A stretch of DNA of 64,000 bases from Aureibacter tunicatorum (GTDB taxonomy: Bacteria; Bacteroidota; Bacteroidia; Cytophagales; Cyclobacteriaceae), in the NCBI RefSeq assembly GCF_036492635.1, contig NZ_AP025305.1, forward strand, positions 3,798,000 through 3,861,999. Reading direction: 5' to 3'. Every line of letters begins with the position of its first letter. The first letter of the stretch is position 1. Positions 11,465-53,995 of the stretch are shown one piece after another. The notes under the pieces were generated by a model, which did no database searches, was not told where the DNA came from, and saw nothing but the letters and a program-made list of their open reading frames with translations. The translations under genes were made by a program, and so were the position numbers.

Positions 11465-12265
11465 TTACTGTCTATTCAATTTTTCTCTCATAAGCTCCAA
11501 TTCAGTCTTTGGCCTGCTTGCTCGAGGATTAACACTTGCTTCTTTTGGTTCCACAGGCAAAGGTTCAACTGACTTAGGTCGCGAAGTTGGCTCAGGCTCG
11601 CTATTATTATTGCTGTTATTAGTAGCTAGCGCTTGATCAATCTCATTGTCAATACTGTCCTTTTCATTGATTAACGACTCATATGACTCTGCCAAAAGCT
11701 CCTGCTCCTCCACACTCTCGCGCATTCGGTTGATACGCTTGGAAGTGGAATCCACATCGATACTGCTTAATTGCTTATTAATATCCGTAGACAACTTGCT
11801 TACCCTAGAGCGCGTTTTAAGCGTTTTCAAGTCTTTCTCCCAAGTGGTTATTTCTGATTTTATATTGGAGATGTTCGCATTTAGCTTATCAGCCATCTGA
11901 GCATATTTATCCACATTGGATTCGAGCGATTGGACATTTTTGTCTACTTCCATTTTTTCAGTCATCGCCTCCAAGCCTACTCTTTCGGCATCTCTAGCCC
12001 TCATCTGTCCACTTTCAGCTCTCTTTATCGCACTGGCAGCCCTGTCTTCAAGGCTTCTGGACTTTTTGCGAGCCTGGTTAAGCTCTTTTCTCTCCTCGAT
12101 CAAAAACGAATTAACCTCCTGAAGAGCAAGCATACTTTCATTAAGGTCTTTTTTCAACTCCGCTATTCCCTCTTCTATTCGTTTTTCGGGATCTTCATGT
12201 TTTTGAATCGCTGAATCTCCTTCAGCTTTTAGAACATTAAAAAGTCTTTTCAAGCTATTAAACAT
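11465..12265 (-). CDS. PspA/IM30 (phage-shock protein A / Vipp1) family coiled-coil protein with low-complexity C-terminal tail
   Basis: N-terminus 'MFNSLKRLFNVLKAEGDSAIQKHEDPEKRIEEGIAELKKDL' matches the PspA 'MGIFSRF...DKAEDPQK...' pattern. Long coiled-coil, Asn/Pro/Ser-rich tail. Confidence 0.55.
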   Translation of the reverse strand: MFNSLKRLFNVLKAEGDSAIQKHEDPEKRIEEGIAELKKDLNESMLALQEVNSFLIEERKELNQARKKSRSLEDRAASAIKRAESGQMRARDAERVGLEAMTEKMEVDKNVQSLESNVDKYAQMADKLNANISNIKSEITTWEKDLKTLKTRSRVSKLSTDINKQLSSIDVDSTSKRINRMRESVEEQELLAESYESLINEKDSIDNEIDQALATNNSNNNSEPEPTSRPKSVEPLPVEPKEASVNPRASRPKTELELMREKLNRQ

Positions 12266-12331
12266 ACCTTATATAAATTAAAAAAATCGAATCGATAGAA
12301 ATGCCTATGATTCGATTTTCATTATTCAAAT

Positions 12332-12365
12332 ACTATTATTTCTACGTATAATTAATATACGTAGA
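12332..12365. promoter_or_regulatory. Perfect 13-bp-arm palindrome (atttctacgtata-attaa-tatacgtagaaat) between the CaCA gene stop and pspA-like start
   Basis: Read directly. Position suits an operator or an intra-operon attenuator/terminator. Confidence 0.45.
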
Positions 12366-12368
12366 AAT

Positions 12369-13697
12369 TTAATTTAGGATATTAAACTGAGAGAAAAAGT
12401 CGTTGGAAGAAGCTAAAAACGAACGTATTCCGCTCACAGAATCCGGCGCGTAAACATAAGCCAAAGTATACAGCAAGAATGCTCCATAAAGGCCAAATAG
12501 CATAAACGCTTTGCTTTTACCCATTTTATTACCAAAGTAATAGATAAAAAATGCAAGTACGGTAAATATCAACAATAAGACACGAAACTCCCCTACAAAG
12601 CTCGAAGCTTCGCCTGTTCCCATTGGGATATTTCCATTGAAAAAGCAATAAATCGCCAATGGAAAGCCAAGCGCGAAACAAATGTCAAAAATATTGCTAC
12701 CTAAAGCATTAGCTACAGCATCATTGTAATTACCCTTTTTAGCATCTTTAATCGAAATAAACGTATCAGGCACGCTTGTAGCGGCAGCGGCGAAAATAAT
12801 AGCGATAATAAACGGAGCTACATTAAGTGCTTCTCCAAGCATCACACAAGCTTCAGCCAGTAAGTGACAAGCTAATCCAATAATCACAGTCGCAACAGCC
12901 AATAGAGACCAAGCCAATCCCTTTGACATCGCTTTGCCGCCAAGCACCGCGTTTTCAATATTTAAAACCATGAAAGACTTCAATCTTCCAACAATACTTC
13001 CGTCAACATACTCGTCCTCTTCCTCCTCTTCTTCTTCGGAATCACCGTCAGCATTGGATATTTTGAAAAACTTAAGTATGGCAATATAACCACCATAGAT
13101 TAACATCAAGATCACACCGTGCAACCATGTCATCTCCGTGGAATTCAGTAAAACAACCAGAAGAAGCTCAGCAAAAATCAAGAATAAACCATCTCTCAAA
13201 ATAACTCTCTTATCAACAGTAACCCCTCTCTTAAGCGAGTAAGAAACAGAAAGAATCACCGCCGCAGGAATAATCATGGCATTAAACACAGCACTGCCGG
13301 CAGTAGTTCCAATACCTCCAGCAAAGCCCGTCGCATCCTTTTGCACAACTAGAAAAAAGAAAGTAGTGAACAACTCAGGCAAAGAACTACCAATTGCATT
13401 GATTGTCGCCCCTTTAACTCCAGCTTCCATGCCCAATTGATCTCCAATATAATCTGAAGCTGTTTCGAACCCATCCGAAGCTTTCCAGATTATCAAGCAA
13501 CAAGCAACGATCACAATGATACTTTGAGCCAAATGAGGAACTCCATGCGTCCAAAAATCAACCATGCCCGGAGCATAAAAATTTATGACTGTAGGTAAAG
13601 CCAACAGCACTATTAAAAAACCTAGAATAAGCCCAACGCTTATTCCTTTTTTCTCACCCGGCTTGGGGGAGACCTCTTTTTCTGTTGTTTGTAACAT
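12369..13697 (-). CDS. Ca2+/cation antiporter (CaCA / Na+-Ca2+ exchanger YrbG-like) with central acidic loop
   Basis: Both alpha-repeat signatures present ('GSSLPELFTT' and 'ALGSNIFDI'). Cytoplasmic loop 'DSEEEEEEEDEY'. Confidence 0.8.
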   Translation of the reverse strand: MLQTTEKEVSPKPGEKKGISVGLILGFLIVLLALPTVINFYAPGMVDFWTHGVPHLAQSIIVIVACCLIIWKASDGFETASDYIGDQLGMEAGVKGATINAIGSSLPELFTTFFFLVVQKDATGFAGGIGTTAGSAVFNAMIIPAAVILSVSYSLKRGVTVDKRVILRDGLFLIFAELLLVVLLNSTEMTWLHGVILMLIYGGYIAILKFFKISNADGDSEEEEEEEDEYVDGSIVGRLKSFMVLNIENAVLGGKAMSKGLAWSLLAVATVIIGLACHLLAEACVMLGEALNVAPFIIAIIFAAAATSVPDTFISIKDAKKGNYNDAVANALGSNIFDICFALGFPLAIYCFFNGNIPMGTGEASSFVGEFRVLLLIFTVLAFFIYYFGNKMGKSKAFMLFGLYGAFLLYTLAYVYAPDSVSGIRSFLASSNDFFSQFNILN

Positions 13698-13716
13698 TTC
13701 TCAATATTTAGTAAAG

Positions 13717-15213
13717 TTATTTTTTATTTGCTATCTGCACATATGCAAGCCTTCCTCCTGTTTCTTCCGAAAGCAAAAGCCTCTGGCCATCCTTCAAATA
13801 TACGCCTTCTCCTTTTTTTATTACCTTTTTTTCATCAATATCTTTTAAAAATCCTATGGATTGATTAACCATCATCCATTTTCCATTATGCAATGAGAAA
13901 TACGCCAAAGGGGCTTTATCATCATCTGACAACTTTTCATTGGGACTTACCAACCGATTCACATGCCATTTATACAAATATTGATTATGATAAATCATGA
14001 GTCGATGCTTATCGTCGGTAAAACTCTCTCCATCCCTTGATGAATAAAATGTAAACACGGGCAATTCTCCCTCATAATGAGTGCCGCAATAATGGCAAAC
14101 AGGCTTGAACTTGTTGTCAAATACAAACCAATGATGCGAGCAATTTTGATTGGAACAAGGTTGAATAAAATCCACTGTTTTGACAAGCGCTTGTTCCCAT
14201 TCATCAGCGGTAGGCCTTTTTTCAGGATCATGAAGTCCTGTTATGAATGCTTTATCAAAGAGTTCTTTTAGATAAGGCCCCGCTATAGTATAAGGAAGCG
14301 CGCCAACATCCGCATAAGGCAACTCTGATTTTTTTATTTGATCAAGCTTTGGCCTGTTCGTCTTATCCATTGGATGCTCTATGAATAAAGCTTTGTTTCC
14401 CATTGTCATCTCCTCATCCAAAGCTGCATCCATATCGTGAACCTTTCCGCCTCTCAAAGGATGCCTGAAAAACAAATACATATATATTAAAACGGCCAAT
14501 GCATGACGATCCGTATAGATAGATGGCAACACTCTCTGCTCCATAGGAAGGTGCTTGCTTATGATAACTTCAGGAGCTATAAAATCAGGAGTTCCGATAA
14601 CATCCGGAGGATATTTCCCCGGAACAACAAGTCCATCGATATCTATTATGCAAGCATTTCGTCCTTTAGGGTCAATCAACACATTCTTATATGAAAGGTC
14701 AGAATGCGCCAAACCAGCCGCGTGAAGTCTTCTAACAGCTCTGCTTATCAATAGGCAAATTCGCAAATAACTAAGTAGATCCCCTTTTTCTCTAGGGTCC
14801 AAAAACCGGTTTTGATGACTGCCTGACGCAAACCATTTTCCTTCTTTTTCTTTGCCTCGTATACCCAGCATATCCTCATTGACAGATCCATGGTCAAAAA
14901 AGAAATGCGATTGAAATACCGGCGTCACAACCCCCCACAATCCATCACTTTCAACGATATCATACGGCCAACAAAATACAGACTTCCAATATTCCCCTCC
15001 GGGTTGATTAAAAATTCGATCCCGATAAGGTCCAACGATATCCAAAAGTCTATTTTGAGAGGCCTCATCCAGCTTTGTCCGAAAGAAACCCACGACATAA
15101 GATTTGTCTTTTGAAAAGTACACATCTTTCATCGCTCCCTGTCCAATGATTTCGTCTATATAAGTAACGGCTTCACCGCTGATTATGGACTTAACACTGC
15201 ATTCTCTAGCCAT
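13717..15213 (-). CDS. Ser/Thr protein kinase-like protein (TerY-P triad kinase) with Cys-rich C-terminal region
   Basis: Gly-loop 'IIGQGAMKDVY'. Catalytic-loop-like 'HSDLSYKNVLID', 'IIDIDG', 'GTPDFIAPE'. C-terminal 'CSNQNCSHH...CHYCG' zinc-ribbon-like. ATG overlaps the upstream gene's TGA (ATGA). Confidence 0.7.
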   Translation of the reverse strand: MARECSVKSIISGEAVTYIDEIIGQGAMKDVYFSKDKSYVVGFFRTKLDEASQNRLLDIVGPYRDRIFNQPGGEYWKSVFCWPYDIVESDGLWGVVTPVFQSHFFFDHGSVNEDMLGIRGKEKEGKWFASGSHQNRFLDPREKGDLLSYLRICLLISRAVRRLHAAGLAHSDLSYKNVLIDPKGRNACIIDIDGLVVPGKYPPDVIGTPDFIAPEVIISKHLPMEQRVLPSIYTDRHALAVLIYMYLFFRHPLRGGKVHDMDAALDEEMTMGNKALFIEHPMDKTNRPKLDQIKKSELPYADVGALPYTIAGPYLKELFDKAFITGLHDPEKRPTADEWEQALVKTVDFIQPCSNQNCSHHWFVFDNKFKPVCHYCGTHYEGELPVFTFYSSRDGESFTDDKHRLMIYHNQYLYKWHVNRLVSPNEKLSDDDKAPLAYFSLHNGKWMMVNQSIGFLKDIDEKKVIKKGEGVYLKDGQRLLLSEETGGRLAYVQIANKK

Positions 15214-16697
15214 CAGTCTTTCCTTTTTAATACCACCATGGTTCTGTCATCATGCTCTCCTGTTGACCAGAAATTCATCCATTCCAATATTTTAGCTTCT
15301 CTCTCCTCTGTTGGTATATCTTCAGCAATGCAATTTCCCTCAAGCTCTTTCATAAACTCACCCCATTGCGTAAAATCATTTAGATTGTCATCAGAGCCAA
15401 ACTTAGGATCTGTAACACCGTCAGTGGCTAAAAATATATATTTCGGTATTTTTTCATAAAACTTAAATCGAACACGCTTGCTAAATTCAGAAACTTGAAA
15501 AATAGAAGGCATATTGATAAACTTAGTCTGTCCGGCAAACTCCCCTCCATCAGGCTCGCCCAACATCTCAAAAGAATCGTCCTCAATCACCGCAATCACA
15601 CCATCGCCTACCCAAAAAGACATGACAACCATGCCGTATTCATACACTTTGGAAATCGTGAATAACAAAGTCGTGGAATAATCTTTAATTGACTCATTTC
15701 TTTCTTCGCTAATGCCTAAGACCGATTTATAAGCTTCCACAGCAGCATTATAAATAAGATTGCTTATCAATCCATTCAAGTCTGCTTTTTTGCTTTCATC
15801 TTGTTGATGGTATACTTTGCCAAAGTGATCGTCCAGATCGGACAATTGCCCCTCGCTCGCAGCATTAGCAATATATTCAACGACAGCATTGCAAGCTATT
15901 TTGGATCCTTTGCGAGAATATTTCGCAGACCCCGCACCATCGGCAACTGTCGAAACCATCCAACCGGACTCTTTGATCTGTCTTATGGAAAAATCGTCAT
16001 CTCTGAATGTGCCCTTATGCGCATGAGATCTTCCTCTTACTGACGCGCCGAATATCTTATAAGCATCAGTTTCTTGGTAATCGTAGTCGGTGTGCGCTTT
16101 TCTAAAAATCTCATTTTCTCCAGGCTCAACTTCAGTCCACAAGCTTTTAGGATCGGGATTAACCGTAAGTCTTATCATTGCATCCTTAGTAACTACGTTC
16201 CCTTCGTGAGAAAGATCAAATTGCAAAAGAGCCACAAAATCTCCGGCTCCATTTAATACTCCAGAAAATGTGATCGAGTGACGATCTACAGAAAGCGCAA
16301 GAACATGCTCAACATTTTCCGAATTTGCTCCAGTCCAGAATAACTTAGGATTGTCAATTTTAGACCCTTCCGCAAAATTTTCAAATGACAATGTGCATTG
16401 ATAATCTGATTGATCCATGCCATTTTTCATTCTCAAAAAATTATTTTCAACCCAATCGAAACTCACCTCGTCGCTTTCAGGTTGAATATCCACTTTTTCC
16501 AAATCGCTTTTATCAATACTCATTTTGACTTCAATATCTCGTTTATCAGTATCATGCAGGCATGCTTGGCTCATTATCAAGCTATGCTTATGTTCATCCA
16601 ATGCCTTGTAAAGATCTTTTTTCTTCAGATCAATCTGTTCAAACAAGCTTTCGAGCTCAAACCTTAATTTTTCTATTCTCTCAACCACTAACTTCAA
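15213..16697 (-). CDS. PP2C-family Ser/Thr phosphatase with roughly 230-aa N-terminal domain of unknown function
   Basis: C-terminal 'STVADGAGSAKYSRKGSKIA', 'GDGVIAV', 'FLATDGVTD' PP2C metal-binding motifs. 4-nt overlap with the kinase gene. Confidence 0.7.
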   Translation of the reverse strand: MKLVVERIEKLRFELESLFEQIDLKKKDLYKALDEHKHSLIMSQACLHDTDKRDIEVKMSIDKSDLEKVDIQPESDEVSFDWVENNFLRMKNGMDQSDYQCTLSFENFAEGSKIDNPKLFWTGANSENVEHVLALSVDRHSITFSGVLNGAGDFVALLQFDLSHEGNVVTKDAMIRLTVNPDPKSLWTEVEPGENEIFRKAHTDYDYQETDAYKIFGASVRGRSHAHKGTFRDDDFSIRQIKESGWMVSTVADGAGSAKYSRKGSKIACNAVVEYIANAASEGQLSDLDDHFGKVYHQQDESKKADLNGLISNLIYNAAVEAYKSVLGISEERNESIKDYSTTLLFTISKVYEYGMVVMSFWVGDGVIAVIEDDSFEMLGEPDGGEFAGQTKFINMPSIFQVSEFSKRVRFKFYEKIPKYIFLATDGVTDPKFGSDDNLNDFTQWGEFMKELEGNCIAEDIPTEEREAKILEWMNFWSTGEHDDRTMVVLKRKD

Positions 16698-16737
16698 ATA
16701 AAAAGTGTACAGGATTTCGTCAATTGACTACGAATCC

Positions 16738-17379
16738 CTACAAAACAATATTCACTTCCTTTGGAGGAGGAGGAAGTTCCAATGACTCAGCTGTTACTCC
16801 CGCGCTTCTGCTACCTTCTTGTATTGTATCCGATACCCATTTAAAATAAGTCTGAAATGTCGAGCTATCACAATTATCCAGCATGGCTACGTTTTCAGTA
16901 AGCTCTCTTAAGTACTCCGATCTTGCTTTAGGTCCAGCGCCACAAGCAATAATGTTACCGAATCGTTGATTTTTCAATACAGGAATCATCTCTCTGTATT
17001 TCATCAAATCGGAAGGCTTCCCATCCGTCATTATGAATAATAAAGGAGCCCAGTCGCCTTTTTGCGAAGCAGTTGTCTTGATGATATCTCTTTTAAGAAT
17101 ATCATTCAGTTTTTCCAAAGCCATTCCAAGATGAGTTGGACCGGAATCAGGTGTGCCAATTGTAGGCAAATGCAACATGGGGAGCTCCGTCAGAGGCATC
17201 ACTTCATTGACTTCCCTATCGAAAGTTACGATGGCTATATGCACTGAATCCAGCGCATAAGGATCTTGCCTTAGTGAAGAAACCAAAGATTGCAAGCCCA
17301 CATTCACAGCTTGAATGGGCTCTCCCTTCATTGACCCTGAAGTGTCCAAGAGTAAGTAAACAGGAAGTCGTCTATTCAT
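16738..17379 (-). CDS. TerY-like von Willebrand factor A (vWA) domain protein
   Basis: MIDAS 'DTSGSM', 'IMTDG', roughly 210 aa, adjacent to TerD genes. Confidence 0.75.
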   Translation of the reverse strand: MNRRLPVYLLLDTSGSMKGEPIQAVNVGLQSLVSSLRQDPYALDSVHIAIVTFDREVNEVMPLTELPMLHLPTIGTPDSGPTHLGMALEKLNDILKRDIIKTTASQKGDWAPLLFIMTDGKPSDLMKYREMIPVLKNQRFGNIIACGAGPKARSEYLRELTENVAMLDNCDSSTFQTYFKWVSDTIQEGSRSAGVTAESLELPPPPKEVNIVL

Positions 17380-17484
17380 GATCTTTTTCTGAAAAATTTA
17401 TGGGAATTCAATCGCTCTATAAAATACGATAAAGCAAAAACGCTAGTTGAATTTCCCAATTACTATAAACAAAATAAAACAGAG

Positions 17485-18123
17485 TTACTTTACAAGATTA
17501 ATGCCTTTGGGAGGGGCAGGAAGCTCACCCAAATCACTTACTTCTTGACCTGTCGACTCTACTTTGGTGCTTGAAACTCCGATAGAAGATGATACCCATT
17601 TAAAAAAGTCTCCGATTGTATCTTCATCAGCAGTCTCAAGACTGACAACATTTGGCGTAATTTGCGAAAGCACGCTTAGATCGGCATTAGGTCCAGCTCC
17701 ACAAGCGACCACAACTCCCCAGCTCTGTGCCTGAAACTCGGCAAGTCCCTTTTTCCAATCATCGGTTGGAACGCCATCAGTCATGATAAACACCAAAGGT
17801 TTCCAATCACCTTTGGCGTCATAACTGGACTTCTTAACTTCCAACTGTGATTTTACCGCCACTAATTCCAATGCCTCACCCAATGAGGTAGCACCTGTAG
17901 TCTTAAGCACCGGCAACTGAATATCCATTAGCTCAGTCAATGGTATCAAGGTTTCGGCATTGGAGCTAAAGCTTATTAAACTCAAATAAGCTGTCTCCAA
18001 CGCATAAGGATTTCTTCTAAGCTCTGCGACTAAATTCTCCAACCCATTTTGAACTGCACTTAAAGCTTGGCCTTCCATCGAATAGGAAGTATCTACCAAC
18101 AAATATACAGGAAGTCTTCTCAT
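17485..18123 (-). CDS. TerY-like vWA domain protein (second paralogue)
   Basis: MIDAS 'DTSYSM', 'IMTDG'. Paralogous to 16738..17379. Confidence 0.75.
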   Translation of the reverse strand: MRRLPVYLLVDTSYSMEGQALSAVQNGLENLVAELRRNPYALETAYLSLISFSSNAETLIPLTELMDIQLPVLKTTGATSLGEALELVAVKSQLEVKKSSYDAKGDWKPLVFIMTDGVPTDDWKKGLAEFQAQSWGVVVACGAGPNADLSVLSQITPNVVSLETADEDTIGDFFKWVSSSIGVSSTKVESTGQEVSDLGELPAPPKGINLVK

Positions 18124-18125
18124 AT

Positions 18126-18740
18126 TTAAATATAGCTTTCTTTAATTCTCAAAATAGTAGAGTCAAGATCGCGATCTTTGATTGCCTCGCCTATTGCATG
18201 AAATTTCCACTCACCATTTCTTTTATACAACTTGCCCATAATCATAGATACATGGCCTGCGTATTGAGGTTCAGAAGAAACATCAAACTTAGCGAAAACT
18301 TTCTCAACACTTTTGGCTGTGCCTTCATACATGCGAATACGCGCATAAGGAATGCTTGCAAAATCTTGCTTCTTATAGCTGTTCAACACAAAATATATTT
18401 GCGTTACATTCGGGTTCACTATGGACAAATCTACAGAGATCACTTCATTATCAAGTCCATCGTCTCCTCCTATATCTCCAGTCAAATCATCTCCACTATG
18501 CGCTATTGACCTGTCATTGGACTTAAGGTGGCCATAATACACGCAATCAAAATCATTTCCTTCGTCATCGAACTGTATGCAACTACCGTCCAAATCCACG
18601 CTTGACGTCGTCGACATCAAGCCAAAAAAAGCTTTACCTTCTATCGCTCCCCAATTAAGACCAACGCAAAAAGAGTCCAAAGACTTTCCCGAGTCTTTCT
18701 TTAGATTGATCTTTTGTCCTTTACTTAAATTTATTGCCAT
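18126..18740 (-). CDS. TerD-domain protein (type A: 'GDDLTGDIGGDDGLDNE')
   Basis: N-terminal 'MAINLSKGQKINL' and the Ca-binding TerD signature. Roughly 200 aa. Confidence 0.85.
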   Translation of the reverse strand: MAINLSKGQKINLKKDSGKSLDSFCVGLNWGAIEGKAFFGLMSTTSSVDLDGSCIQFDDEGNDFDCVYYGHLKSNDRSIAHSGDDLTGDIGGDDGLDNEVISVDLSIVNPNVTQIYFVLNSYKKQDFASIPYARIRMYEGTAKSVEKVFAKFDVSSEPQYAGHVSMIMGKLYKRNGEWKFHAIGEAIKDRDLDSTILRIKESYI

Positions 18741-18766
18741 TGTTGTTAACTAAAAAGGTTAAATTA

Positions 18767-19321
18767 CTATCGTTGATAACGATCTACAAAGTGCTGAAGG
18801 TCCTTCATATAGCCGGTTCCCATAGCTTCAAACTTCCACTGACCTGATCGCTTATACAATCTGCCGAACTCTATCGAAGTTTCTACAGAATAATCCTCAT
18901 CAAGCTCATAAATCATCATTTCTTCCTTGGATGACGAGTCAACTATTCGAATATATGAATTTCTAACCTGTCCAAAATTTTGATTTTTTTCCTCTCCTTC
19001 ATGGATAGTCACAGTGAATATAATTTGCTGAACACGCGAATCAATATTGCCCAAATCAATCATGATCGTCTCATCGTCTCCATCTCCGTCTCCCGTCAGG
19101 TTATCACCTGAATGCGTCACAGCTCCATCAGGCGATTTTAATTGATTATAAAAAATCATGAAGTCATCAGAAATAAGCTTTTCTTCCTCATCGATCATGA
19201 AAGCCACAACATCTAAGTCAGCGCTTGCAGCCGCACCGCGACTTACATCCCAACCTAGACCGACATTAAACTTCTGAGCTTCAATATTAGCCCTTTGTCC
19301 TTTTTTAAGATTGATAGCCAT
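18767..19321 (-). CDS. TerD-domain protein (type B: 'GDNLTGDGDGDDE')
   Basis: Internal ATG at 19321 gives 'MAINLKKGQRANIE...'. The ORF-track 5' extension (to 19459) is non-homologous and overlaps the upstream gene's end. Confidence 0.85.
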   Translation of the reverse strand: MAINLKKGQRANIEAQKFNVGLGWDVSRGAAASADLDVVAFMIDEEEKLISDDFMIFYNQLKSPDGAVTHSGDNLTGDGDGDDETIMIDLGNIDSRVQQIIFTVTIHEGEEKNQNFGQVRNSYIRIVDSSSKEEMMIYELDEDYSVETSIEFGRLYKRSGQWKFEAMGTGYMKDLQHFVDRYQR

Positions 19322-19458
19322 TGTTAATTGTTTAGTTATTGAATGTCTAAAATTATTTACTATCCGATTAATGTTTCTATACGATATTGAGCCAGTCGCT
19401 CTAAATGAAATATGACCGCCTGAAACTGAAAAATCAACAAGCGGCCATATCTCATGCA

Positions 19459-20124
19459 TTATACATAGTCTTTAAGAATCTTATTAATCGTCTGTTTATA
19501 ATCACGCTCTTTGATAGGATCTCCAATTGCATGGAATTTCCATTCTCCATTGCGTCGATAGAGTTTGCCCATGATCATCGATACATACCCCGCATATGAA
19601 CTATCCCCAGCCACATCGAATGTCGCAAAAACCTTATTAACCTTGGAAGGTGTGCCTTCGTACATGCGAATCTTTGCAAAAGGGATTTCAGCAAAATCCT
19701 GCTTTTTATAACTATTTAAGAAAAAGAAAACCTGCTCGGTGGCGGGATTGATCTTAGGCAAATTAACAGTGATAACTTCATTGTCCAAGCCATCATCTCC
19801 ATCCATATCACCTGTCAAGTCATCTCCACTGTGTATTATGGCTCTGTCTTTACTTTTCAAGTCTCCATAAAATACAAAGTCTACGACTTTGCCATTTTTA
19901 TCAACCATCAGACAACTGGCATCCAAGTCAACTTCAACCTTTTTGCCTGTCATTCCAACTGCTTTTTTCACTATTCCAAAAAATGAGCTCTCGTCCGCAG
20001 GGATTTCTATAGCTCCCCAGTTAAGTCCCACGCAAAAAGATTTCAGAGCCGTGCTAGTATTCGCTCCGCTTGTTCCGGGCTTGACCAAATTGATCTTTTG
20101 CCCTTTTACTAATGTAACTGCCAT
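19459..20124 (-). CDS. TerD-domain protein (type A paralogue)
   Basis: 'MAVTLVKGQKINL', 'HSGDDLTGDMDGDDGLDNE'. Confidence 0.85.
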   Translation of the reverse strand: MAVTLVKGQKINLVKPGTSGANTSTALKSFCVGLNWGAIEIPADESSFFGIVKKAVGMTGKKVEVDLDASCLMVDKNGKVVDFVFYGDLKSKDRAIIHSGDDLTGDMDGDDGLDNEVITVNLPKINPATEQVFFFLNSYKKQDFAEIPFAKIRMYEGTPSKVNKVFATFDVAGDSSYAGYVSMIMGKLYRRNGEWKFHAIGDPIKERDYKQTINKILKDYV

Positions 20125-20139
20125 ATTTGTTAGTCAAAA

Positions 20140-20781
20140 TTACGCCAACCAGCTTGGGTCGCAATATTTATAAAAAAAGTGATCTATCTCCTCGTTGTAA
20201 CTCATGCCCATAGCATCAAACTTCCACTCAGAACCTCTACGATACAGTCGAGCAACCTCTATCGAAGTCTCAGTGGAGTAATCTTCATCAAGGTCGTATT
20301 GCAATTCCTCTCTGCCTGTGTTCTCATCATATATGCGAATGTATGAATTTCGAACTTGCCCGAAATTTTGTCCTCTAGATTCCGCATCATATATCGTAAC
20401 CACAATTATGATTTCTTGAGTATCCGAGCTAACCTTTTGAAGATCAATATTGATCGTCTCGTCGTCGCCTCCATCGCTTTCGTTTCCTGAAGTATCATCA
20501 AATGACCCCAAGACAGCTCCGTCTGAAGACATCGGCCTTGTCTTCGCTTTCCAATCATCATCGCTGGCGAATTTACTGCTGAATGGCTCCGTTCTTAATT
20601 CACTTTGATAAAAAACAAAATCGGATTGCTTGCCGCACTTCCCATTGGACCCAATCAAAAAAGCCGAAACATCCAAATCAAAGTCTTCACCAGAAGAAGT
20701 GTTTGGGTCCCAACCCAGACCTACGCCCAGCTTGTTAAGACCCATCGTTACGCGTTGTCCTTTTTTTAACTTTATTCCCAT
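20140..20781 (-). CDS. TerD-domain protein (divergent type C, with inserted acidic/Ser-rich loop)
   Basis: 'MGIKLKKGQRVTM', '...SGNESDGGDDETINIDL', C-terminal 'WKFDAMG'. Confidence 0.8.
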   Translation of the reverse strand: MGIKLKKGQRVTMGLNKLGVGLGWDPNTSSGEDFDLDVSAFLIGSNGKCGKQSDFVFYQSELRTEPFSSKFASDDDWKAKTRPMSSDGAVLGSFDDTSGNESDGGDDETINIDLQKVSSDTQEIIIVVTIYDAESRGQNFGQVRNSYIRIYDENTGREELQYDLDEDYSTETSIEVARLYRRGSEWKFDAMGMSYNEEIDHFFYKYCDPSWLA

Positions 20782-20799
20782 TATACTTAAAAATACTCC

Positions 20800-21354
20800 T
20801 TAAACCTCTAATCCATATTTTTGAACAAAGAAACCTAAATCTTCCATGTATCCAATTCCCATAGCTTCAAACTTCCATTGGCCTGAACGCTTATACAGCC
20901 TTCCGAACTCTATCGATTTTTCAACGGAATAATCTTCATCCAATTCATAAATCATAATTTCTTCATTGGACTTTTTATCTGTGATACGAATGTAAGAGTT
21001 TCTTACCTGACCAAAATTTTGACCTCGTTCTTCGGCTTCATGTATCGTCACCACAAACACTATCTGATCGACTCTAGAATCAAGTTTCGAGATATCAACG
21101 CTGATCACTTCATCATCGCCATCGCCATCGCCGGTTCTGTTATCTCCGGTATGAACGACTGCCTTGTCAGCCGATTCAAGTTGATTATAAAAAACAATAA
21201 ATGATTCAGAAATCGTATTGCCAGACTCATCCAACATAAATGCTGTCACATCAAGGTCTGACTCTCCTCTTGAATTAATATCCCAACCCAAGCCTACGTT
21301 GAAGCTATTCGTCTCGATATTAGATCTTTGCCCTTTTACTAAATTTACTGCCAT
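20800..21354 (-). CDS. TerD-domain protein (type B paralogue)
   Basis: Internal ATG at 21354 gives 'MAVNLVKGQRSNIE...GDNRTGDGDGDDE'. Upstream ORF-track extension is AT-rich junk. Confidence 0.85.
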   Translation of the reverse strand: MAVNLVKGQRSNIETNSFNVGLGWDINSRGESDLDVTAFMLDESGNTISESFIVFYNQLESADKAVVHTGDNRTGDGDGDDEVISVDISKLDSRVDQIVFVVTIHEAEERGQNFGQVRNSYIRITDKKSNEEIMIYELDEDYSVEKSIEFGRLYKRSGQWKFEAMGIGYMEDLGFFVQKYGLEV

Positions 21355-22160
21355 GAATTCCTTCCAAAAAAATGAATCTGATTTATAAAATAATACAAAT
21401 AATCGATGTTCATATCGTAAGCATCTAATATTTAGTTCTAATGAAATTGATAATTCATTCTCATCACAAGTAACTAAAAATATCAATTTATATACTTTTT
21501 TGTTAAAAACAATAAAGCTAACCATGATTTTAAAAAAGTTAAAAAAAATATTCTTATATAACTATAACTAAAAACTATTTCACACTCTTATTATCAATGC
21601 TTTAATCATTGCTAGAATGAATTAAAGAGTTAAATATCAAATTAAATTGAAATAAAAGTCATAATTCATCAATAAAAATCATATCATAAAAAACAATTAA
21701 AACATCTAAAATCACAATAAATTTATCTGAAAAAATAAATATTAAACCCATTAAACACTCAATAATTTAACTGAAAATCAATATAAGTACAAATTAAAAA
21801 AGACTGAAGCAGGTAAAAACACTGCGACAGCCTCCGTTAATAGACACAATCAATCAACAAGCTATTGCCTATAATAATAACTTGTCATTCATAAACATCT
21901 ATTATCTTTAATTATTATATTAAATATTAAAAAATGAATTTATTCAACTACAGTTAATCAAAAGTATTGCTCTGTTCCAAAAATTCTAACCCTTTTACAT
22001 TTGAAGCTGATTTTATTCTACCAGCAATTCGAAAAAAAACAAGCTTACAGCTTTTTCAAAAAATGCCTTTTTTACCAAAATGAATAAATAATTACCCAAA
22101 AATGTCGGATAACAACTGTAAAATTTGCTCTGAATCAGATTGACAACAAAATTCAAAAAA

Positions 22161-22529
22161 ATGGGAGCAACAAACAGCATTATCAGAATTCTTTATGGAG
22201 CTTTTTTAACATTCTTCGGCGCCAACGGTATTAACCAGTCCAAGCTTATACTCAACTAGGTTTCAGACCTTGGACTCTTCACCGAAACAACAGGCTATCT
22301 TTTCATGGGAATCGCCATCTTTGAGATTATTATTGGAACCTTGCTAATCTCTAATATCGCAGTGCCTTTAGCTACACTTGCCATTTTTCCAGTAGCCATA
22401 TTCGCATTCTTCTATCATCTATCAATTGATATCCACGGAATTAGCGGAGCCGCATTCGCTTTAGTATTCAACATCATTCTGTTTATCCAGCATTTCGATT
22501 CTTATAAGATGCTTTTAGTTTCCAAATAA
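22161..22529 (+). pseudogene. DoxX-like small membrane protein interrupted by an in-frame TAG (22257-22259)
   Basis: ATG 22161 gives 'MGATNSIIRILYGAFLTFFGANGINQSKLILN', then TAG, then 'VSDLGLFTETTGYLFMGIAIFEII...' in the same frame. DoxX-like hydrophobic pattern. Confidence 0.45.
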
Positions 22530-23264: not shown

Positions 23265-23834
23265 TCAACGAGCATTTGCTCTTATTCGGCTCAATGTCTC
23301 CAGCGTAACCCCCAAATAAGAAGCGATATAAGTCAGTGGAATTTGCTTTAAAATGTATGAATTATTCTCCAGCAAAAAACGATACCGCTCAGCCGCGGTG
23401 CAAAACTGTATGGAGTGCAATCGCTCTTCAAGCAATAAAACGTAGGCGGAAGTCAACGTCTCTCGAATCTCCCTCAATTCAGGATACTTGTCTTTAATCA
23501 TCTCAAAATCTTGAATGCTCATCCTATACACCTTGCTATCCACAACCGCTTGAATTGTCTCATCACTTTCCTTTTTGAGCAAAGAACTTCGAAAATTCGT
23601 CGCTACGTCATTGGGAAACGTAAAGCCTGTAGTTACCTCTATTCCTTTTTTAGTATAAAAATTCCTCAAGATGCCTTCCTCAACAAAGTAGTAATAATTG
23701 CAAACACTGCCTTCCTTAAGCAAGCAATCGCTTTTACTTATCGAAAGGAGCTCCAGGTACTTCTCCGCCTCCGTCATCATCAGCTTTTTTAGCTTGGGTA
23801 TCGCATGACTATTTATGTAAGTCAAGTAATCCAT
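23265..23834 (-). CDS. Crp/Fnr-family transcriptional regulator
   Basis: cNMP-binding-like N-terminus and C-terminal HTH 'IASYLGVTLETLSRIR'. Confidence 0.75.
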   Translation of the reverse strand: MDYLTYINSHAIPKLKKLMMTEAEKYLELLSISKSDCLLKEGSVCNYYYFVEEGILRNFYTKKGIEVTTGFTFPNDVATNFRSSLLKKESDETIQAVVDSKVYRMSIQDFEMIKDKYPELREIRETLTSAYVLLLEERLHSIQFCTAAERYRFLLENNSYILKQIPLTYIASYLGVTLETLSRIRANAR

Positions 23835-23948
23835 GAAAATATATTAATTGATTTGCTCTCAAAATAAATGCTTGCTCAAAGGTAAGTTGAACAATAGGTT
23901 TACATTTCCTTTGTCTCATTTGTTTGATATCTTATCAAAATAGTTCAT

Positions 23949-24851
23949 TTACTTAATCGGTATGCACAAATCCACTATCGCTTTCTTCTCTGGATGGCTA
24001 TTGAAGTCGTTGTAATAAATTCCAAAAGGCTCTCGATCCGCTTTTTGATATTCATTTTCATTCATCCATAAAAATAATCCAGTCCACGCCTGCTCAAACT
24101 CCTGCATGCCTAATTCAAAACTTCCGACGATAAATTTTCCTTCAGGGATAAATTTTAGTCTGACCTCCTCTTTTGCTTGCTTTAGCTCTTTTTGAAGAAG
24201 CAAACAAGCATCCATTCTCACTTTATGAGGTTCAGTAACCTTGAAGCTGTCATGATAGATTGTGATCATTTGGCTTTGATCATTCATTAAGCCTTCTGAC
24301 ATTCCCCATTGCACAAGTTTTTGATAATTACGTCCCAACTCTTCCAACCCCATACTGTGGATATAAGCGACTTGCATCGCTGGCAAATTCTTAATGCCTA
24401 CCTTTTTCGCATTTTTCATAATCCATTGTTTTAGTTCATTGATAAAACAAATGTATTGTTCCGAATCAGGATAGACTTGGCCATTCTTGCTATTTATCAT
24501 TTTAATCCTTAAGAACTTATTGGGATGCTCAAGTCTGAAAGCTGTAGGACTCATGCCGTAATACTTTTTGAAAGATCGGGTAAATGAAGAATTATCCTGA
24601 AAACCAAACATCAAAGCAATCTCAGTAATACTCGTCAAATGATGAACAAGCTCAGATGCCGACTTCTCAATTTTTCGTCTAACAATATACCCATTGGGAG
24701 TTTCACTTGTAATCATCTTAAAAATACGATGAAAGTGATAAGGCGACATGCTAGCTTGGTTTGCCAATACTTCCAATGACAAATCCTCATTCAAATTACG
24801 ATCTATGTACTCAAAAACATCATGGATTTTGATACGATGATAGCTTTTCAC
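23949..24851 (-). CDS. AraC-family transcriptional regulator with C-terminal GyrI-like effector-binding domain
   Basis: N-terminal AraC HTH ('SPYHFHRIFKMITSETPNGYIVRRKIEKSASEL'). C-terminal roughly 150-aa GyrI-like fold pattern. Confidence 0.7.
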   Translation of the reverse strand: MKSYHRIKIHDVFEYIDRNLNEDLSLEVLANQASMSPYHFHRIFKMITSETPNGYIVRRKIEKSASELVHHLTSITEIALMFGFQDNSSFTRSFKKYYGMSPTAFRLEHPNKFLRIKMINSKNGQVYPDSEQYICFINELKQWIMKNAKKVGIKNLPAMQVAYIHSMGLEELGRNYQKLVQWGMSEGLMNDQSQMITIYHDSFKVTEPHKVRMDACLLLQKELKQAKEEVRLKFIPEGKFIVGSFELGMQEFEQAWTGLFLWMNENEYQKADREPFGIYYNDFNSHPEKKAIVDLCIPIK

Positions 24852-50515: not shown

Positions 50516-50582
50516 ACAGAGTATATTATACCTAAAATATATTATGCAAATATTTGCCTAATGTAAAAAAAGCGTTACATTT

Positions 50583-50680
50583 GCGTAGCGATTCGGGACT
50601 ACCAGCTCCTTATGAACTCCCCCAGGGCCGGAAGGCAGCAAGGGTAGTAAGTTGTAGCGGTGAGATCTTGAATCGCTACT
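50583..50680 (+). ncRNA. ffs: Signal recognition particle RNA (small/4.5S type), copy 1
   Basis: Domain-IV signature 'cccccagggccggaaggcagcaagggtag'. Closing helix gtagcgattc/gaatcgctac. Preceded by TAcaTTTG (-7-like box), followed by a T-run. Confidence 0.7.
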
Positions 50681-50791
50681 TTTATTTATAGCCATTTAGA
50701 ATTAACACGCCTCTCTTCTCTAAATCGGTTTTTCGACTTATATTTACTCCACAACCGAAACCGACACCACACAGCAACCGAATTCCACTGA

Positions 50792-51445: not shown

Positions 51446-51483
51446 TAAAAGTGTTTGCAATTACAATTAATTCAACTATATTT

Positions 51484-51577
51484 GCATCGCAATTCGGGAC
51501 TACTAGCTCCTTATGAACTCCCCCAGGGCCGGAAGGCAGCAAGGGTAGTAAGTCGTAGCAGTGAGATCTTGGATTGC
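51484..51577 (+). ncRNA. ffs: Signal recognition particle RNA (small/4.5S type), copy 2 (diverged paralogue)
   Basis: Same domain-IV core. Closing helix gcaattc/ggattgc with compensatory changes relative to copy 1. Preceded by TAtaTTTG, followed by TTTTTTT. Confidence 0.65.
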
Positions 51578-51686
51578 TTTTTTTATGCTCAAATTTTATT
51601 ACCCCCCAGTCCCTTTCAACACTCAATATCAAACAATAGATAGATCTAGAGGTTTAAGTTTAAGATTCTTTCTTTTCCCTCAAACC

Positions 51687-52772: not shown

Positions 52773-52842
52773 TCCATATTAATCAAAAACAAAAAAGCGA
52801 AACGCAATAATACGTTTCGCTTAAAATCAAAAGAAAATCTCG

Positions 52843-52915
52843 AGCGGGTGATCAGGTTCGAACTGACGACTTACAGCTTGGAAGGCTGTCGCTCTACCAA
52901 CTGAGCTACACCCGC
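52843..52915 (-). tRNA. tRNA-Gly (anticodon UCC)
   Basis: Reverse complement folds as GCGGGTG-TA-GCTCAGTTGGTAGAGC-G-ACAGC-CTTCCAA-GCTGT-AAGTC-GTCAGTTCGAACCTGAT-CACCCGC-T. Confidence 0.9.
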
Positions 52916-52952
52916 AATAAAAGAGTAACAACCGACAAATATCGGAAAATAG

Positions 52953-53025
52953 AGCGGGTGATCAGGTTCGAACTGACGACTTACAGCTTGGAAGGCTGTC
53001 GCTCTACCAACTGAGCTACACCCGC
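52953..53025 (-). tRNA. tRNA-Gly (anticodon UCC)
   Basis: Identical copy of 52843..52915. Confidence 0.9.
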
Positions 53026-53041
53026 GATTTTCAATTCTATG

Positions 53042-53124
53042 TGGGGAGAGCAGGATTCGAACCTGCGAAGTCGAAAGACAACGGATTTACAGTCCGTCCC
53101 AGTTGGCCGCTTTGGTATCTCCCC
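53042..53124 (-). tRNA. tRNA-Tyr (anticodon GUA), type II with long variable arm
   Basis: Reverse complement GGGGAGA-TA-CCAAAGCGGCCAACTGGG-...-CTGTAAA-...-GCAGGTTCGAATCCTGC-TCTCCCC-A. Confidence 0.85.
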
Positions 53125-53169
53125 AACTAAATATTTTAAATTTATTCAAACCTATTATTTGAATACTGG

Positions 53170-53242
53170 AGCGGGTGATCAGGTTCGAACTGACGACTTA
53201 CAGCTTGGAAGGCTGTCGCTCTACCAACTGAGCTACACCCGC
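53170..53242 (-). tRNA. tRNA-Gly (anticodon UCC)
   Basis: Identical repeat copy. Confidence 0.9.
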
Positions 53243-53258
53243 GATTTTCAATTCTATG

Positions 53259-53341
53259 TGGGGAGAGCAGGATTCGAACCTGCGAAGTCGAAAGACAACG
53301 GATTTACAGTCCGTCCCAGTTGGCCGCTTTGGTATCTCCCC
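53259..53341 (-). tRNA. tRNA-Tyr (anticodon GUA)
   Basis: Identical repeat copy. Confidence 0.85.
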
Positions 53342-53387
53342 AACTAAATATTTTAAAATTTATTCAAACCTATTATTTGAATGCTGG

Positions 53388-53460
53388 AGCGGGTGATCAG
53401 GTTCGAACTGACGACTTACAGCTTGGAAGGCTGTCGCTCTACCAACTGAGCTACACCCGC
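53388..53460 (-). tRNA. tRNA-Gly (anticodon UCC)
   Basis: Identical repeat copy. Confidence 0.9.
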
Positions 53461-53476
53461 GATTTTCAATTCTATG

Positions 53477-53559
53477 TGGGGAGAGCAGGATTCGAACCTG
53501 CGAAGTCGAAAGACAACGGATTTACAGTCCGTCCCAGTTGGCCGCTTTGGTATCTCCCC
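53477..53559 (-). tRNA. tRNA-Tyr (anticodon GUA)
   Basis: Identical repeat copy. Confidence 0.85.
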
Positions 53560-53605
53560 AACTAAATATTTTAAAATTTATTCAAACCTATTATTTGAAT
53601 GCTGG

Positions 53606-53678
53606 AGCGGGTGATCAGGTTCGAACTGACGACTTACAGCTTGGAAGGCTGTCGCTCTACCAACTGAGCTACACCCGC
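53606..53678 (-). tRNA. tRNA-Gly (anticodon UCC)
   Basis: Identical repeat copy. Confidence 0.9.
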
Positions 53679-53694
53679 GATTTTCAATTCTATG

Positions 53695-53777
53695 TGGGGA
53701 GAGCAGGATTCGAACCTGCGAAGTCGAAAGACAACGGATTTACAGTCCGTCCCAGTTGGCCGCTTTGGTATCTCCCC
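53695..53777 (-). tRNA. tRNA-Tyr (anticodon GUA)
   Basis: Identical repeat copy. Confidence 0.85.
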
Positions 53778-53823
53778 AACTAAATATTTTAAAATTTATT
53801 CAAATCTATTATTTGAATGCTGG

Positions 53824-53896
53824 AGCGGGTGATCAGGTTCGAACTGACGACTTACAGCTTGGAAGGCTGTCGCTCTACCAACTGAGCTACACCCGC
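53824..53896 (-). tRNA. tRNA-Gly (anticodon UCC)
   Basis: Identical repeat copy. Confidence 0.9.
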
Positions 53897-53912
53897 GATT
53901 TTCAATTCTGTG

Positions 53913-53995
53913 TGGGGAGAGCAGGATTCGAACCTGCGAAGTCGAAAGACAACGGATTTACAGTCCGTCCCAGTTGGCCGCTTTGGTATCTCCCC
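53913..53995 (-). tRNA. tRNA-Tyr (anticodon GUA)
   Basis: Repeat copy with a single substitution in the flank. Confidence 0.85.

Follow-up and report, generated by a model that had tools for sequence, protein, structure and literature searches.

A probable Bacteroidota-type ter operon in Aureibacter tunicatorum, with a CaCA antiporter in its transport slot and a proposed role in Ca2+ handling

Within a 64-kb stretch of DNA from Aureibacter tunicatorum (Bacteroidota), hereafter the window, whose positions give all coordinates below, we analyzed eleven open reading frames (ORFs) that occupy 11465-21354 on the minus strand and all run in one direction. On balance, we consider this locus to be probably a chromosomal ter operon of a Bacteroidota type, composed of a TerD set, a TerY-P switch of von Willebrand factor A (vWA) proteins, PP2C phosphatase and Ser/Thr kinase, and a 3' transport slot filled by an antiporter of the CaCA superfamily, which together would handle Ca2+ at a damaged membrane. 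This reading is anchored on what we observe directly: the gene content, the domain architecture, the catalytic and metal-binding residues and the conservation of gene order. Among related loci, the one slot is filled by TerC, a PMCA-type Ca2+ pump or CaCA, and never by two of them, which yields a testable hypothesis of divalent-cation (Ca2+) extrusion at the stressed membrane. The ter genes have documented tellurite, phage and colicin resistance and virulence phenotypes, with no agreed mechanism. As A. tunicatorum is cultured, its locus could serve as a compact model free of TerC and TerB, a significance that we draw purely from comparative inference.

Architecture of the locus

A sequence-only reading that preceded this analysis had listed the same eleven genes and assigned them to the TerD, vWA, PP2C, kinase, CaCA and PspA families. 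All the ORFs are present at 11465-21354, and a scan with hidden Markov models (HMMs) placed every one of them above the curated Pfam gathering cut-off for its family. Assembly GCA_031454105.1 has the same locus, as does a Logan assembly, and the kinase matches an A. tunicatorum protein at 100% identity. In the order of transcription, with lengths in amino acids (aa) and Pfam E-values, its features are:

21355..22010, minus strand: AT-rich non-coding leader or promoter region 5' of TerD_a; no Rfam family match
20800..21354, minus strand: TerD_a, 184 aa, subtype 1, canonical Ca2+ motif HTGDNRTGDGDGDDE; Pfam TerD 1.7e-64
20140..20781, minus strand: TerD_b, 213 aa, subtype 2, divergent acidic loop DDTSGNESDGGDDE; Pfam TerD 3.2e-56
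19459..20124, minus strand: TerD_c, 221 aa, subtype 3, variant motif GDDLTGDMDGDDGLDNE; Pfam TerD 1.4e-36
18767..19321, minus strand: TerD_d, 184 aa from its probable start, subtype 1 duplicate, canonical motif HSGDNLTGDGDGDDE; Pfam TerD 1.3e-68
18126..18740, minus strand: TerD_e, 204 aa, subtype 3 duplicate; Pfam TerD 8.4e-38
17485..18123, minus strand: TerY-type vWA protein 1, 212 aa, motif DTSYS; Pfam VWA 1.1e-12
16738..17379, minus strand: TerY-type vWA protein 2, 213 aa, motif DTSGS; Pfam VWA 9.3e-13
15213..16697, minus strand: PP2C phosphatase, 494 aa; Pfam PP2C_2 5.1e-36 over residues 221-449
13717..15213, minus strand: Ser/Thr kinase, 498 aa, kinase domain, Zn ribbon and modelled FHA-fold domain; Pfam Pkinase 1e-10
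12369..13697, minus strand: CaCA-superfamily cation antiporter, 442 aa, 19 bp after the kinase; Pfam Na_Ca_ex 1.4e-36 in two stretches
12266..12368, minus strand: spacer between CaCA and PspA with two hairpins, the second terminator-like
11465..12265, minus strand: PspA/IM30 homologue, 266 aa, uncertain member of the operon; Pfam PspA_IM30 2.2e-25

Following the same order, the intergenic gaps measure 18, 15, 137, 26, 2, 105, 40, -1, 19 and 103 bp, with PP2C, kinase and CaCA tightly coupled (-1 and 19 bp). The earlier description of short gaps or overlaps fits the several gaps of at most 40 bp but not those of 137, 105 and 103 bp, and the overlap that it gave as ATGA between PP2C and kinase is in fact TGATG, in which the stop and the start share a single nucleotide (nt) and the kinase would be coupled to PP2C in translation. 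A search of the ~650-bp AT-rich leader and of the cluster against Rfam returned no match, neither to yybP-ykoY nor to any other riboswitch.

All five TerD proteins match the Pfam TerD profile (E-values of 1e-36 to 1e-68; 126-231 bits against a cut-off of 25.3), and since all are single-domain proteins of 184-221 aa, none is of the TerZ/TerA type. They fall into three subtypes, formed by TerD_a and TerD_d (70% identical), by TerD_b alone, and by TerD_c and TerD_e (63% identical). Among relatives whose flanks are complete, the nearest is a metagenomic contig (ENA ERZ25059145 contig_13; hereafter L087). It encodes three TerD proteins, of which the first is 74% identical to TerD_a, the second 76% to TerD_b and the third 56% to TerD_c; because L087 has one of each subtype, the second copies of subtypes 1 and 3 in A. 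tunicatorum point to an older duplication. The Ca2+ motif GDxxTGxGDGDDE, at first ascribed to the TerD proteins as a set, is retained in canonical form, GDN(R/L)TGDGDGDDE, only in TerD_a and TerD_d, whereas TerD_b, TerD_c and TerD_e have variant loops, that of TerD_c and TerD_e reading GDDLTGD(M/I)(D/G)GDDGLDNE. A PDB sequence search aligned TerD_a with Klebsiella TerD 2KXT (5e-47), including the acidic Ca2+-loop motif; we take 2KXT to be the Ca2+-bound form of that protein. The frame of TerD_d is open back to 19459, the position first given as its start, but the TerD domain begins at residue 47 of this long ORF, and judging from the sequence the start is most likely at 19321 (MAINLKKGQ), where the match to the TerD model begins.

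The two vWA proteins match Pfam VWA (each about 1e-12 and about 49 bits; cut-off 23.8) and carry the DxSxS motifs of a metal-ion-dependent adhesion site (MIDAS), DTSYS and DTSGS. The identity of vWA protein 1 to the first vWA of L087 is 71%, and to its counterpart in Budvicia, the first TerY vWA there, 55%; for vWA protein 2 and the second vWA of each locus, the values are 79% and 53%. A third vWA gene, bearing a TerY_C domain and found in the Budvicia locus L001, in the Halosquirtibacter locus L003, in L087 and in most other relatives, is missing between vWA protein 2 and PP2C, which are separated by a 40-bp gap. The PP2C phosphatase (124.6 bits against PP2C_2) comprises a variable N-terminus, an N-terminal region, an invariant NPDPxSLW linker and the PP2C_2 catalytic domain; RGRSHAH, DGAGS, GDG, TDG and DDRT are invariant across 10 orthologues, and the metal-binding Asp residues are kept. 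From its motif NGxVGxxY...GLxFD...GTP..GDF, we read the N-terminal region as a putative immunoglobulin-like (Ig-like) domain. A sequence search recovered no PDB relative of the phosphatase, and neither its N-terminus nor the C-terminus of the kinase gave a Pfam match even at E<=10.

The kinase scores 41.7 bits against Pkinase (cut-off 31.7). Its HSD..N, DIDG and APE motifs are invariant across the aligned orthologues, as are the four cysteines of its CxxxxC...CxxC Zn ribbon (C353, C358, C373 and C376). The last 110 residues take on an FHA fold in an AlphaFold model (predicted local distance difference test score, pLDDT, 84), and the protein accordingly appears to consist of a kinase domain, a Zn ribbon and an FHA-fold domain. 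The Zn ribbon, together with the 55% and 53% vWA identities to Budvicia, bears out the initial recognition of a TerY-P triad in the vWA, PP2C and kinase genes. More generally, the kinase family of Ter clusters, the classical enterobacterial member included, appears to end in an FHA-fold domain past the Zn ribbon (13717-14199 in the window), a region that has no Pfam model, in proteins to which NCBI gives the name 'helix-hairpin-helix domain-containing'. On the evidence of the model, this domain would be a small addition to the known system.

A tblastn search of the 64-kb window (E<0.01) detected no TerC, TerB or TerB-like, P-type ATPase, HAD or phosphoribosyltransferase (PRTase) gene, with both enterobacterial and Bacteroidota TerC proteins among the queries. 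Along with the single-domain state of the TerD proteins, this agrees with the first reading, in which TerZ, TerA, TerB and TerC were absent.

Recurrence of the core order and relation to known Ter systems

More than 4,000 homologues of the kinase are detectable, the best 120 at about 58% identity or more. A GTDB-wide scan with the kinase alignment yielded 80 loci, which were mapped by tblastn, the queries being the proteins of the window together with reference Ter proteins. Of 83 loci anchored on the kinase, most are arranged as TerD(n)-vWA(n)-[vWA with TerY_C]-PP2C-kinase. Within Bacteroidota, it was recovered from Dysgonomonas, Prevotellaceae, Tannerella, Phocaeicola, Chitinophaga, Hymenobacter, Marinilabiliales and Cytophagales, and outside this phylum from Acidobacteriota, Planctomycetota, Desulfuromonadaceae and Alphaproteobacteria; a Budvicia kinase of about 60% identity lies inside a classical ter cluster. 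Because the core order recurs across phyla, the array initially called non-canonical represents a common operon type. As such, it is not distinctive: TerD(n)-vWA(n)-PP2C-kinase is widespread, and CaCA has two alternatives, a PMCA-type Ca2+ ATPase and TerC, with which it never occurs together. The expectation of a neighborhood conserved across Bacteroidetes holds for the core order, in dozens of Bacteroidota and other genomes, but not for PspA, which follows the core in one independent relative (L087). According to the summary in PMC11090510, Anantharaman, Iyer and Aravind described the TerY-P triad from computational analysis in 2012, and the TerD(n)-vWA(n)-PP2C-kinase core is already known. 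On TerD together with an antiporter, the literature searched contained nothing relevant.

With the classical ter system (terZABCDEF with terY/terX/terW; Budvicia aquatica, L001/L044), the window shares TerD-domain paralogues, TerY vWA proteins (53-55%), a PP2C followed by a Zn-ribbon kinase (about 60%) and the order vWA..PP2C-kinase. The Budvicia layout is vWA-TerD-vWA-vWA(TerY_C)-PP2C-kinase, accompanied by a divergent TerD/TerC/TerB cluster and by ATP-grasp, PRTase, HAD and C-C lyase genes. In contrast, the window has no TerC, TerB or two-domain TerZ/TerA, none of the ATP-grasp/PRTase/HAD/C-C lyase biosynthetic genes and no TerY_C-bearing third vWA. Its TerD genes lie upstream, in what would be the same operon, whereas classical TerD genes occupy a divergent one, and a CaCA antiporter and PspA come after its kinase. 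Compared with the TerY-P triad in the summary given by PMC11090510, contiguous and co-directional TerY-like vWA, PP2C and Zn-ribbon kinase genes are held in common; the window differs in having two vWA genes and in a kinase that adds an FHA-fold domain past the Zn ribbon, a feature absent from that summary.

The TerY-P defence system of PADLOC (Gao et al. 2020 type) was considered and rejected, as no model matched the vWA or PP2C proteins. The kinase gave only weak PADLOC matches, to mad6, PD-T4-6 and MkoA, and lacks the C-terminal OB fold of the PADLOC-type TerY-P system. Because no PADLOC TerY-P model matches, the locus was not filed as a TerY-P defence system.

Closer counterparts are found in Bacteroidales-type operons (Dysgonomonas L010 and L043; Mariniphaga L018), which read TerD(n)-vWA(n)-vWA(TerY_C)-PP2C-kinase-HAD-PRTase_3-PMCA-type Ca2+ ATPase and thus match the window in the core and its order, in a kinase identity of 60-63% and in a 3' Ca2+ exporter. 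They differ in their exporter, a pump driven by ATP where the window has an antiporter, in the HAD and ComF-like PRTase genes, neither of which occurs in the window, and in having no PspA. L087 is organized as TerDx3-vWAx2-vWA(TerY_C)-PP2C-kinase-CaCA-PspA, with identities to the window of 71% for the kinase, 62% for CaCA and 38% for PspA. Relative to the window, it has three TerD genes instead of five, keeps the TerY_C vWA gene and adds, after PspA, a gene for a 133-aa TerB-like protein, so labelled through homology to L035 and with only a sub-threshold match to Pfam TerB. Its flanks hold a Type I restriction gene (HsdR) and a resolvase gene.

The transport slot and the PspA gene

The CaCA protein matches Na_Ca_ex with 126 bits in two repeats. 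The alpha-1/alpha-2 signature of the superfamily (G-S/T-S-x-P-E/D) is represented in it by GSSLPE and ATSVPD, which do not vary among eight Ter-linked orthologues; its acidic cytoplasmic loop is conserved in these as well. To survey the slot, we used the 71 kinase-anchored loci with enough sequence and scored a transporter as present if it lay anywhere in the ~20-kb locus (within 10 kb), the TerC count including the divergent enterobacterial position. CaCA was present in 10 of the 71, a PMCA-type Ca2+ P-type ATPase in 16 and TerC in 11; 34 loci had none of the three, and no locus had more than one type (0/71). Once clustered and identified with Pfam and NCBIfam, the genes 3' of the kinase form a few recurring modules: (i) HAD, ComF-like PRTase_3 and a P-type ATPase of about 970 aa; (ii) TerC, confirmed with Pfam; (iii) CaCA; and (iv) small TerB-like proteins with a PrsW protease. 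The ATPases tested scored 683 and 699 bits, against an NCBIfam equivalog cut-off of 507 for the PMCA-type Ca2+ ATPase. On the most economical interpretation, exporters of divalent cations of three kinds stand in for each other beside TerD. TerC-TerD is reported as the minimal tellurite-resistance unit, and titles in the reference list of PMC12054061 name TerC-family proteins as Mn2+ transporters. The substitution of CaCA for TerC and its exclusivity with the Ca2+-ATPase were not found in the literature searched and may be in the 2012 paper.

In the reverse test, a metagenome scan with the CaCA protein alignment produced 80 loci. TerD occurs in 32 of these, and in 15 of the 24 that have at least 4 kb on both flanks; the full triad was recovered in eight CaCA-anchored loci. 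The TerD-CaCA link is therefore real and widespread, though not universal, and the coupling to a Ca2+ transporter remarked upon in the sequence-only reading extends across related loci. This conserved link to a Ca2+ exporter supports a divalent-cation (Ca2+) role of the system.

The same scan brought up another TerD-CaCA operon type, frequent on marine contigs (L091, L095, L097, L106, L108 and L123; e.g. L097:1648-11155), in the order of two genes without annotation, whose products measure about 1290 and about 500 aa (the shorter one with a proline-rich tail), TerD, TerD, a TSP3-repeat/OmpA membrane protein and CaCA. Its antiporter belongs to the same CaCA branch as that of the window (about 50% identity) and is linked directly to TerD genes; unlike the window, this operon has no vWA, PP2C, kinase or PspA gene and places the OmpA/TSP3-repeat protein between TerD and CaCA. 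Separately, in Algivirga pacifica (L170:10001-12546), the closest CaCA homologue from an isolate that lacks a Ter link (52% identity) overlaps a downstream gene for a SpoIIE/PP2C-type phosphatase, a second and independent pairing of the CaCA branch with a PP2C-family phosphatase.

The last gene of the array encodes a PspA/IM30 homologue (PspA_IM30 over residues 5-217, 90 bits; cut-off 33.9), a coiled coil with a low-complexity tail ending in TELELMREKLN. It stays below the cut-off of the proteobacterial PspA equivalog TIGR02977 (26.8 against 242.95 bits), and the flanking genes scanned with Pfam include no Psp partner family (PspB, PspC or PspF). The 103-bp spacer that separates it from CaCA folds into two strong hairpins (free energy, dG, -33.5 kcal/mol; z-score -5.96; 0 of 200 shuffles as stable). 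The first is a 13-bp perfect palindrome directly past the CaCA stop, and the second is followed by a terminator-like U7 run about 17-20 nt from the PspA start. No PspA was detected by tblastn in the first 83 kinase-anchored loci. Apart from L087, none of 160 related loci anchored on kinase or CaCA has it, and a combined search with tblastn and a custom HMM over all ORFs of 169 loci recovered it only in the A. tunicatorum genome, in L087 and in three loci fetched for their PspA. The placement of PspA within one operon-like array, as first proposed, is thus weakly supported, being backed by L087 but opposed by its absence from these 160 loci and by the terminator-like hairpin in front of it.

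It is quite possible, though we stop short of calling it probable, that the core operon ends at CaCA and that PspA is a separately regulated neighbor, placed there by a lineage-specific juxtaposition without functional coupling. Consistent with such a boundary, PspA is confined to its own genome and L087 among the kinase- or CaCA-anchored loci, its nearest homologues (40-43% identity), which come from Flammeovirga, Rapidithrix and a metagenome contig, follow genes of the DnaJ-domain or YbjN/CesT-like type, Flammeovirga aprica carries its Ter-CaCA operon and its PspA on separate contigs, and the spacer has its two hairpins and the U7 run. Conversely, in L087, where the flanks are different, PspA also lies directly after CaCA, co-directional and across a 44-bp spacer without hairpins; the PspA proteins of the window and L087 pair in a neighbor-joining tree; jumbo gut phages place terD beside a pspA-like gene (PMC12880540); and the roughly 17 nt from the U-run to the PspA start leave little room for a separate promoter. 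We consider it probable, though not proven, that PspA is a lineage-specific accessory gene of the operon, and such a PspA tail is a small addition to the known system. The shared TELELxRExLN ending was examined as evidence of orthology between the Ter-linked PspA proteins and discarded, as the tail of the DnaJ-linked homologues is similar.

The phages in question are the Jug phages of Bacteroides/Phocaeicola (PMC12880540), which share with the window TerD, a PspA-like protein and a Ca2+ P-type ATPase, with terD and the pspA-like gene adjacent and co-transcribed; there, in contrast, the genes are phage-encoded and no TerY-P triad is reported. Because no relative of the window PspA was found in 50,697 phage records or in IMG/VR contigs, the gene could not be tied by direct homology to the pspA-like gene of the Jug phages. 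The presence of PspA, a rare addition that has its parallel in these Bacteroides jumbo phages, hints at a link to membrane repair. The comparative-genomics paper on phage shock proteins (PSP) makes no mention of TerD, vWA, PP2C or antiporters. As a further observation, Cytophagales PspA homologues at L084:7551-8828, L086:7429-8852 and L085:7598-8750 consistently have the gene of a small DnaJ-domain protein in front of them, a place that a YbjN/CesT-like chaperone takes in Rapidithrix.

Proposed function and competing explanations

In the reading that we favor, a Bacteroidota-type ter operon handling Ca2+ at a damaged membrane, the TerD paralogues would form a membrane-proximal assembly that binds Ca2+ (or another divalent cation) and partners the exporter. 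Envelope damage by phage, pore-formers or toxic oxyanions would admit Ca2+; the vWA proteins, kinase and PP2C would sense this entry and set the state of the complex by phosphorylation, with the modelled FHA-fold domain of the kinase possibly docking on the resulting phosphothreonine sites. CaCA would then export the incoming cation, and PspA, where present, could stabilize or repair the membrane. The ligand, the trigger, the physical complex and the co-transcription of the operon are those that we infer from the comparisons above.

Several observations weigh against this scheme. At the level of the proteins, the metal loop departs from the canonical form in three of the five TerD paralogues, and CaCA falls below the cut-off of the YrbG equivalog (TIGR00367, 129.6 bits and 1.3e-37, against 179.65), with a score of 70.5 against PRK10734 (cut-off 432). 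At the level of the neighborhoods, an adjoining transporter is not obligatory, because the 34 loci mentioned above have none within 10 kb; about 40% of the well-flanked CaCA relatives do not lie beside TerD; and the closest genome-derived CaCA proteins outside the cluster, those of Algivirga pacifica and Flammeovirga pacifica, are not Ter-linked, so this CaCA branch is not exclusive to Ter operons. As for PspA, it occurs in just two genomes, whose copies share 38% identity, and the hairpin with its U7 run suggests termination or attenuation before the gene. Finally, experimental work on the Bacteroidota operon was not found in the literature searched.

A different emphasis, which we consider unlikely to be the primary one, would make the locus an anti-phage defence of the abortive-infection type, in which the TerY-P proteins sense infection, TerD and CaCA alter the membrane or ion state, and cation homeostasis is the means. 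The classical ter operon confers phage inhibition and colicin resistance, and deletion of terC reduces phage resistance (PMC12054061); TerY-P-like triads act as stand-alone defence systems and also accompany CoCoNuT restriction systems (PMC11090510). In addition, L087 adjoins the HsdR and resolvase genes, the kinase identity of about 60% across phyla suggests horizontal spread, and phages carry TerD themselves. The window itself gives a different picture: no PADLOC TerY-P model recognizes any of its vWA, PP2C and kinase proteins, the kinase gives weak hits to other systems only, and its Zn ribbon is joined by an FHA-fold region where the tested defence triads have an OB fold. The neighbors of the array are regulators, a GNAT gene, a lysozyme-like gene and a peptide deformylase gene, and do not form a defence island. 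The two explanations are also compatible.

Still less likely, in our estimate, is a role in detoxifying metals or metalloids (tellurite or other oxyanions, Zn/Mn) like that of plasmid ter, in which Ca2+ would not be the ligand and CaCA would export, for instance, Mn2+. Such a role would agree with reports that Te(IV), Zn(II) and Mn(II) induce the ter operon and that terC contributes to Zn resistance (PMC12054061), with the Mn transporters of the TerC family named in the reference titles of that paper, and with the part played by a Borrelia homologue of Na+/Ca2+ antiporters in Mn2+ homeostasis, as reported in the title and abstract of a preprint (10.64898/2026.06.16.732666). It fits poorly with an alternative occupant of the slot that passes the curated threshold of the PMCA-type Ca2+ ATPase equivalog, and with the absence from the 64-kb window of TerC and TerB, the carriers of the classical tellurite phenotype. 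The TerD structure matched by sequence, Klebsiella 2KXT, is moreover presumably a Ca2+-bound form.

The Ca2+-handling reading can be carried further, to a proposal that we think improbable as it stands: TerD proteins would be the Ca2+ sensors of a bacterial membrane-wound response, in which Ca2+ that leaks in across a damaged envelope would be captured by the TerD paralogues and the vWA proteins and the kinase/PP2C/FHA switch would be set, any one of the interchangeable exporters (CaCA, PMCA-type ATPase or TerC) would clear the Ca2+, and PspA, a homologue of ESCRT-III, would reseal the membrane in some lineages and in jumbo phages. If true, this response would be a prokaryotic counterpart of the Ca2+-triggered, ESCRT-III-dependent membrane repair of eukaryotes, and it would account for the long-standing puzzle of why ter operons combine phage, colicin and tellurite phenotypes.

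Other features of the window lie outside the array. Just upstream of the operon and on the same strand, 23265-24851 encodes cNMP-binding (Crp-like) and AraC/GyrI-like regulators, and in Halosquirtibacter (L003:1-102) a cNMP-binding gene also lies a few kb upstream of the TerD genes, a possible regulatory link. Between the GNAT gene and the operon leader, a short membrane-protein ORF on the plus strand (22170-22529; 74 aa called, with a frame that seems to extend upstream) is possibly a degraded or mis-started gene in an otherwise non-coding stretch. Further away, two copies of the Bacteroidales-type small signal recognition particle (SRP) RNA (RF04183; 72.9 and 62.7 bits) lie 900 bp apart on the plus strand at 50579-50682 and 51480-51583, an unusual duplication of this gene. 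On the minus strand, 52842-53995 holds a tandem array of alternating tRNA-Tyr(GTA) and tRNA-Gly(TCC) genes (5 Tyr and 6 Gly) with a period of about 218 bp and identical scores among the copies of each type.

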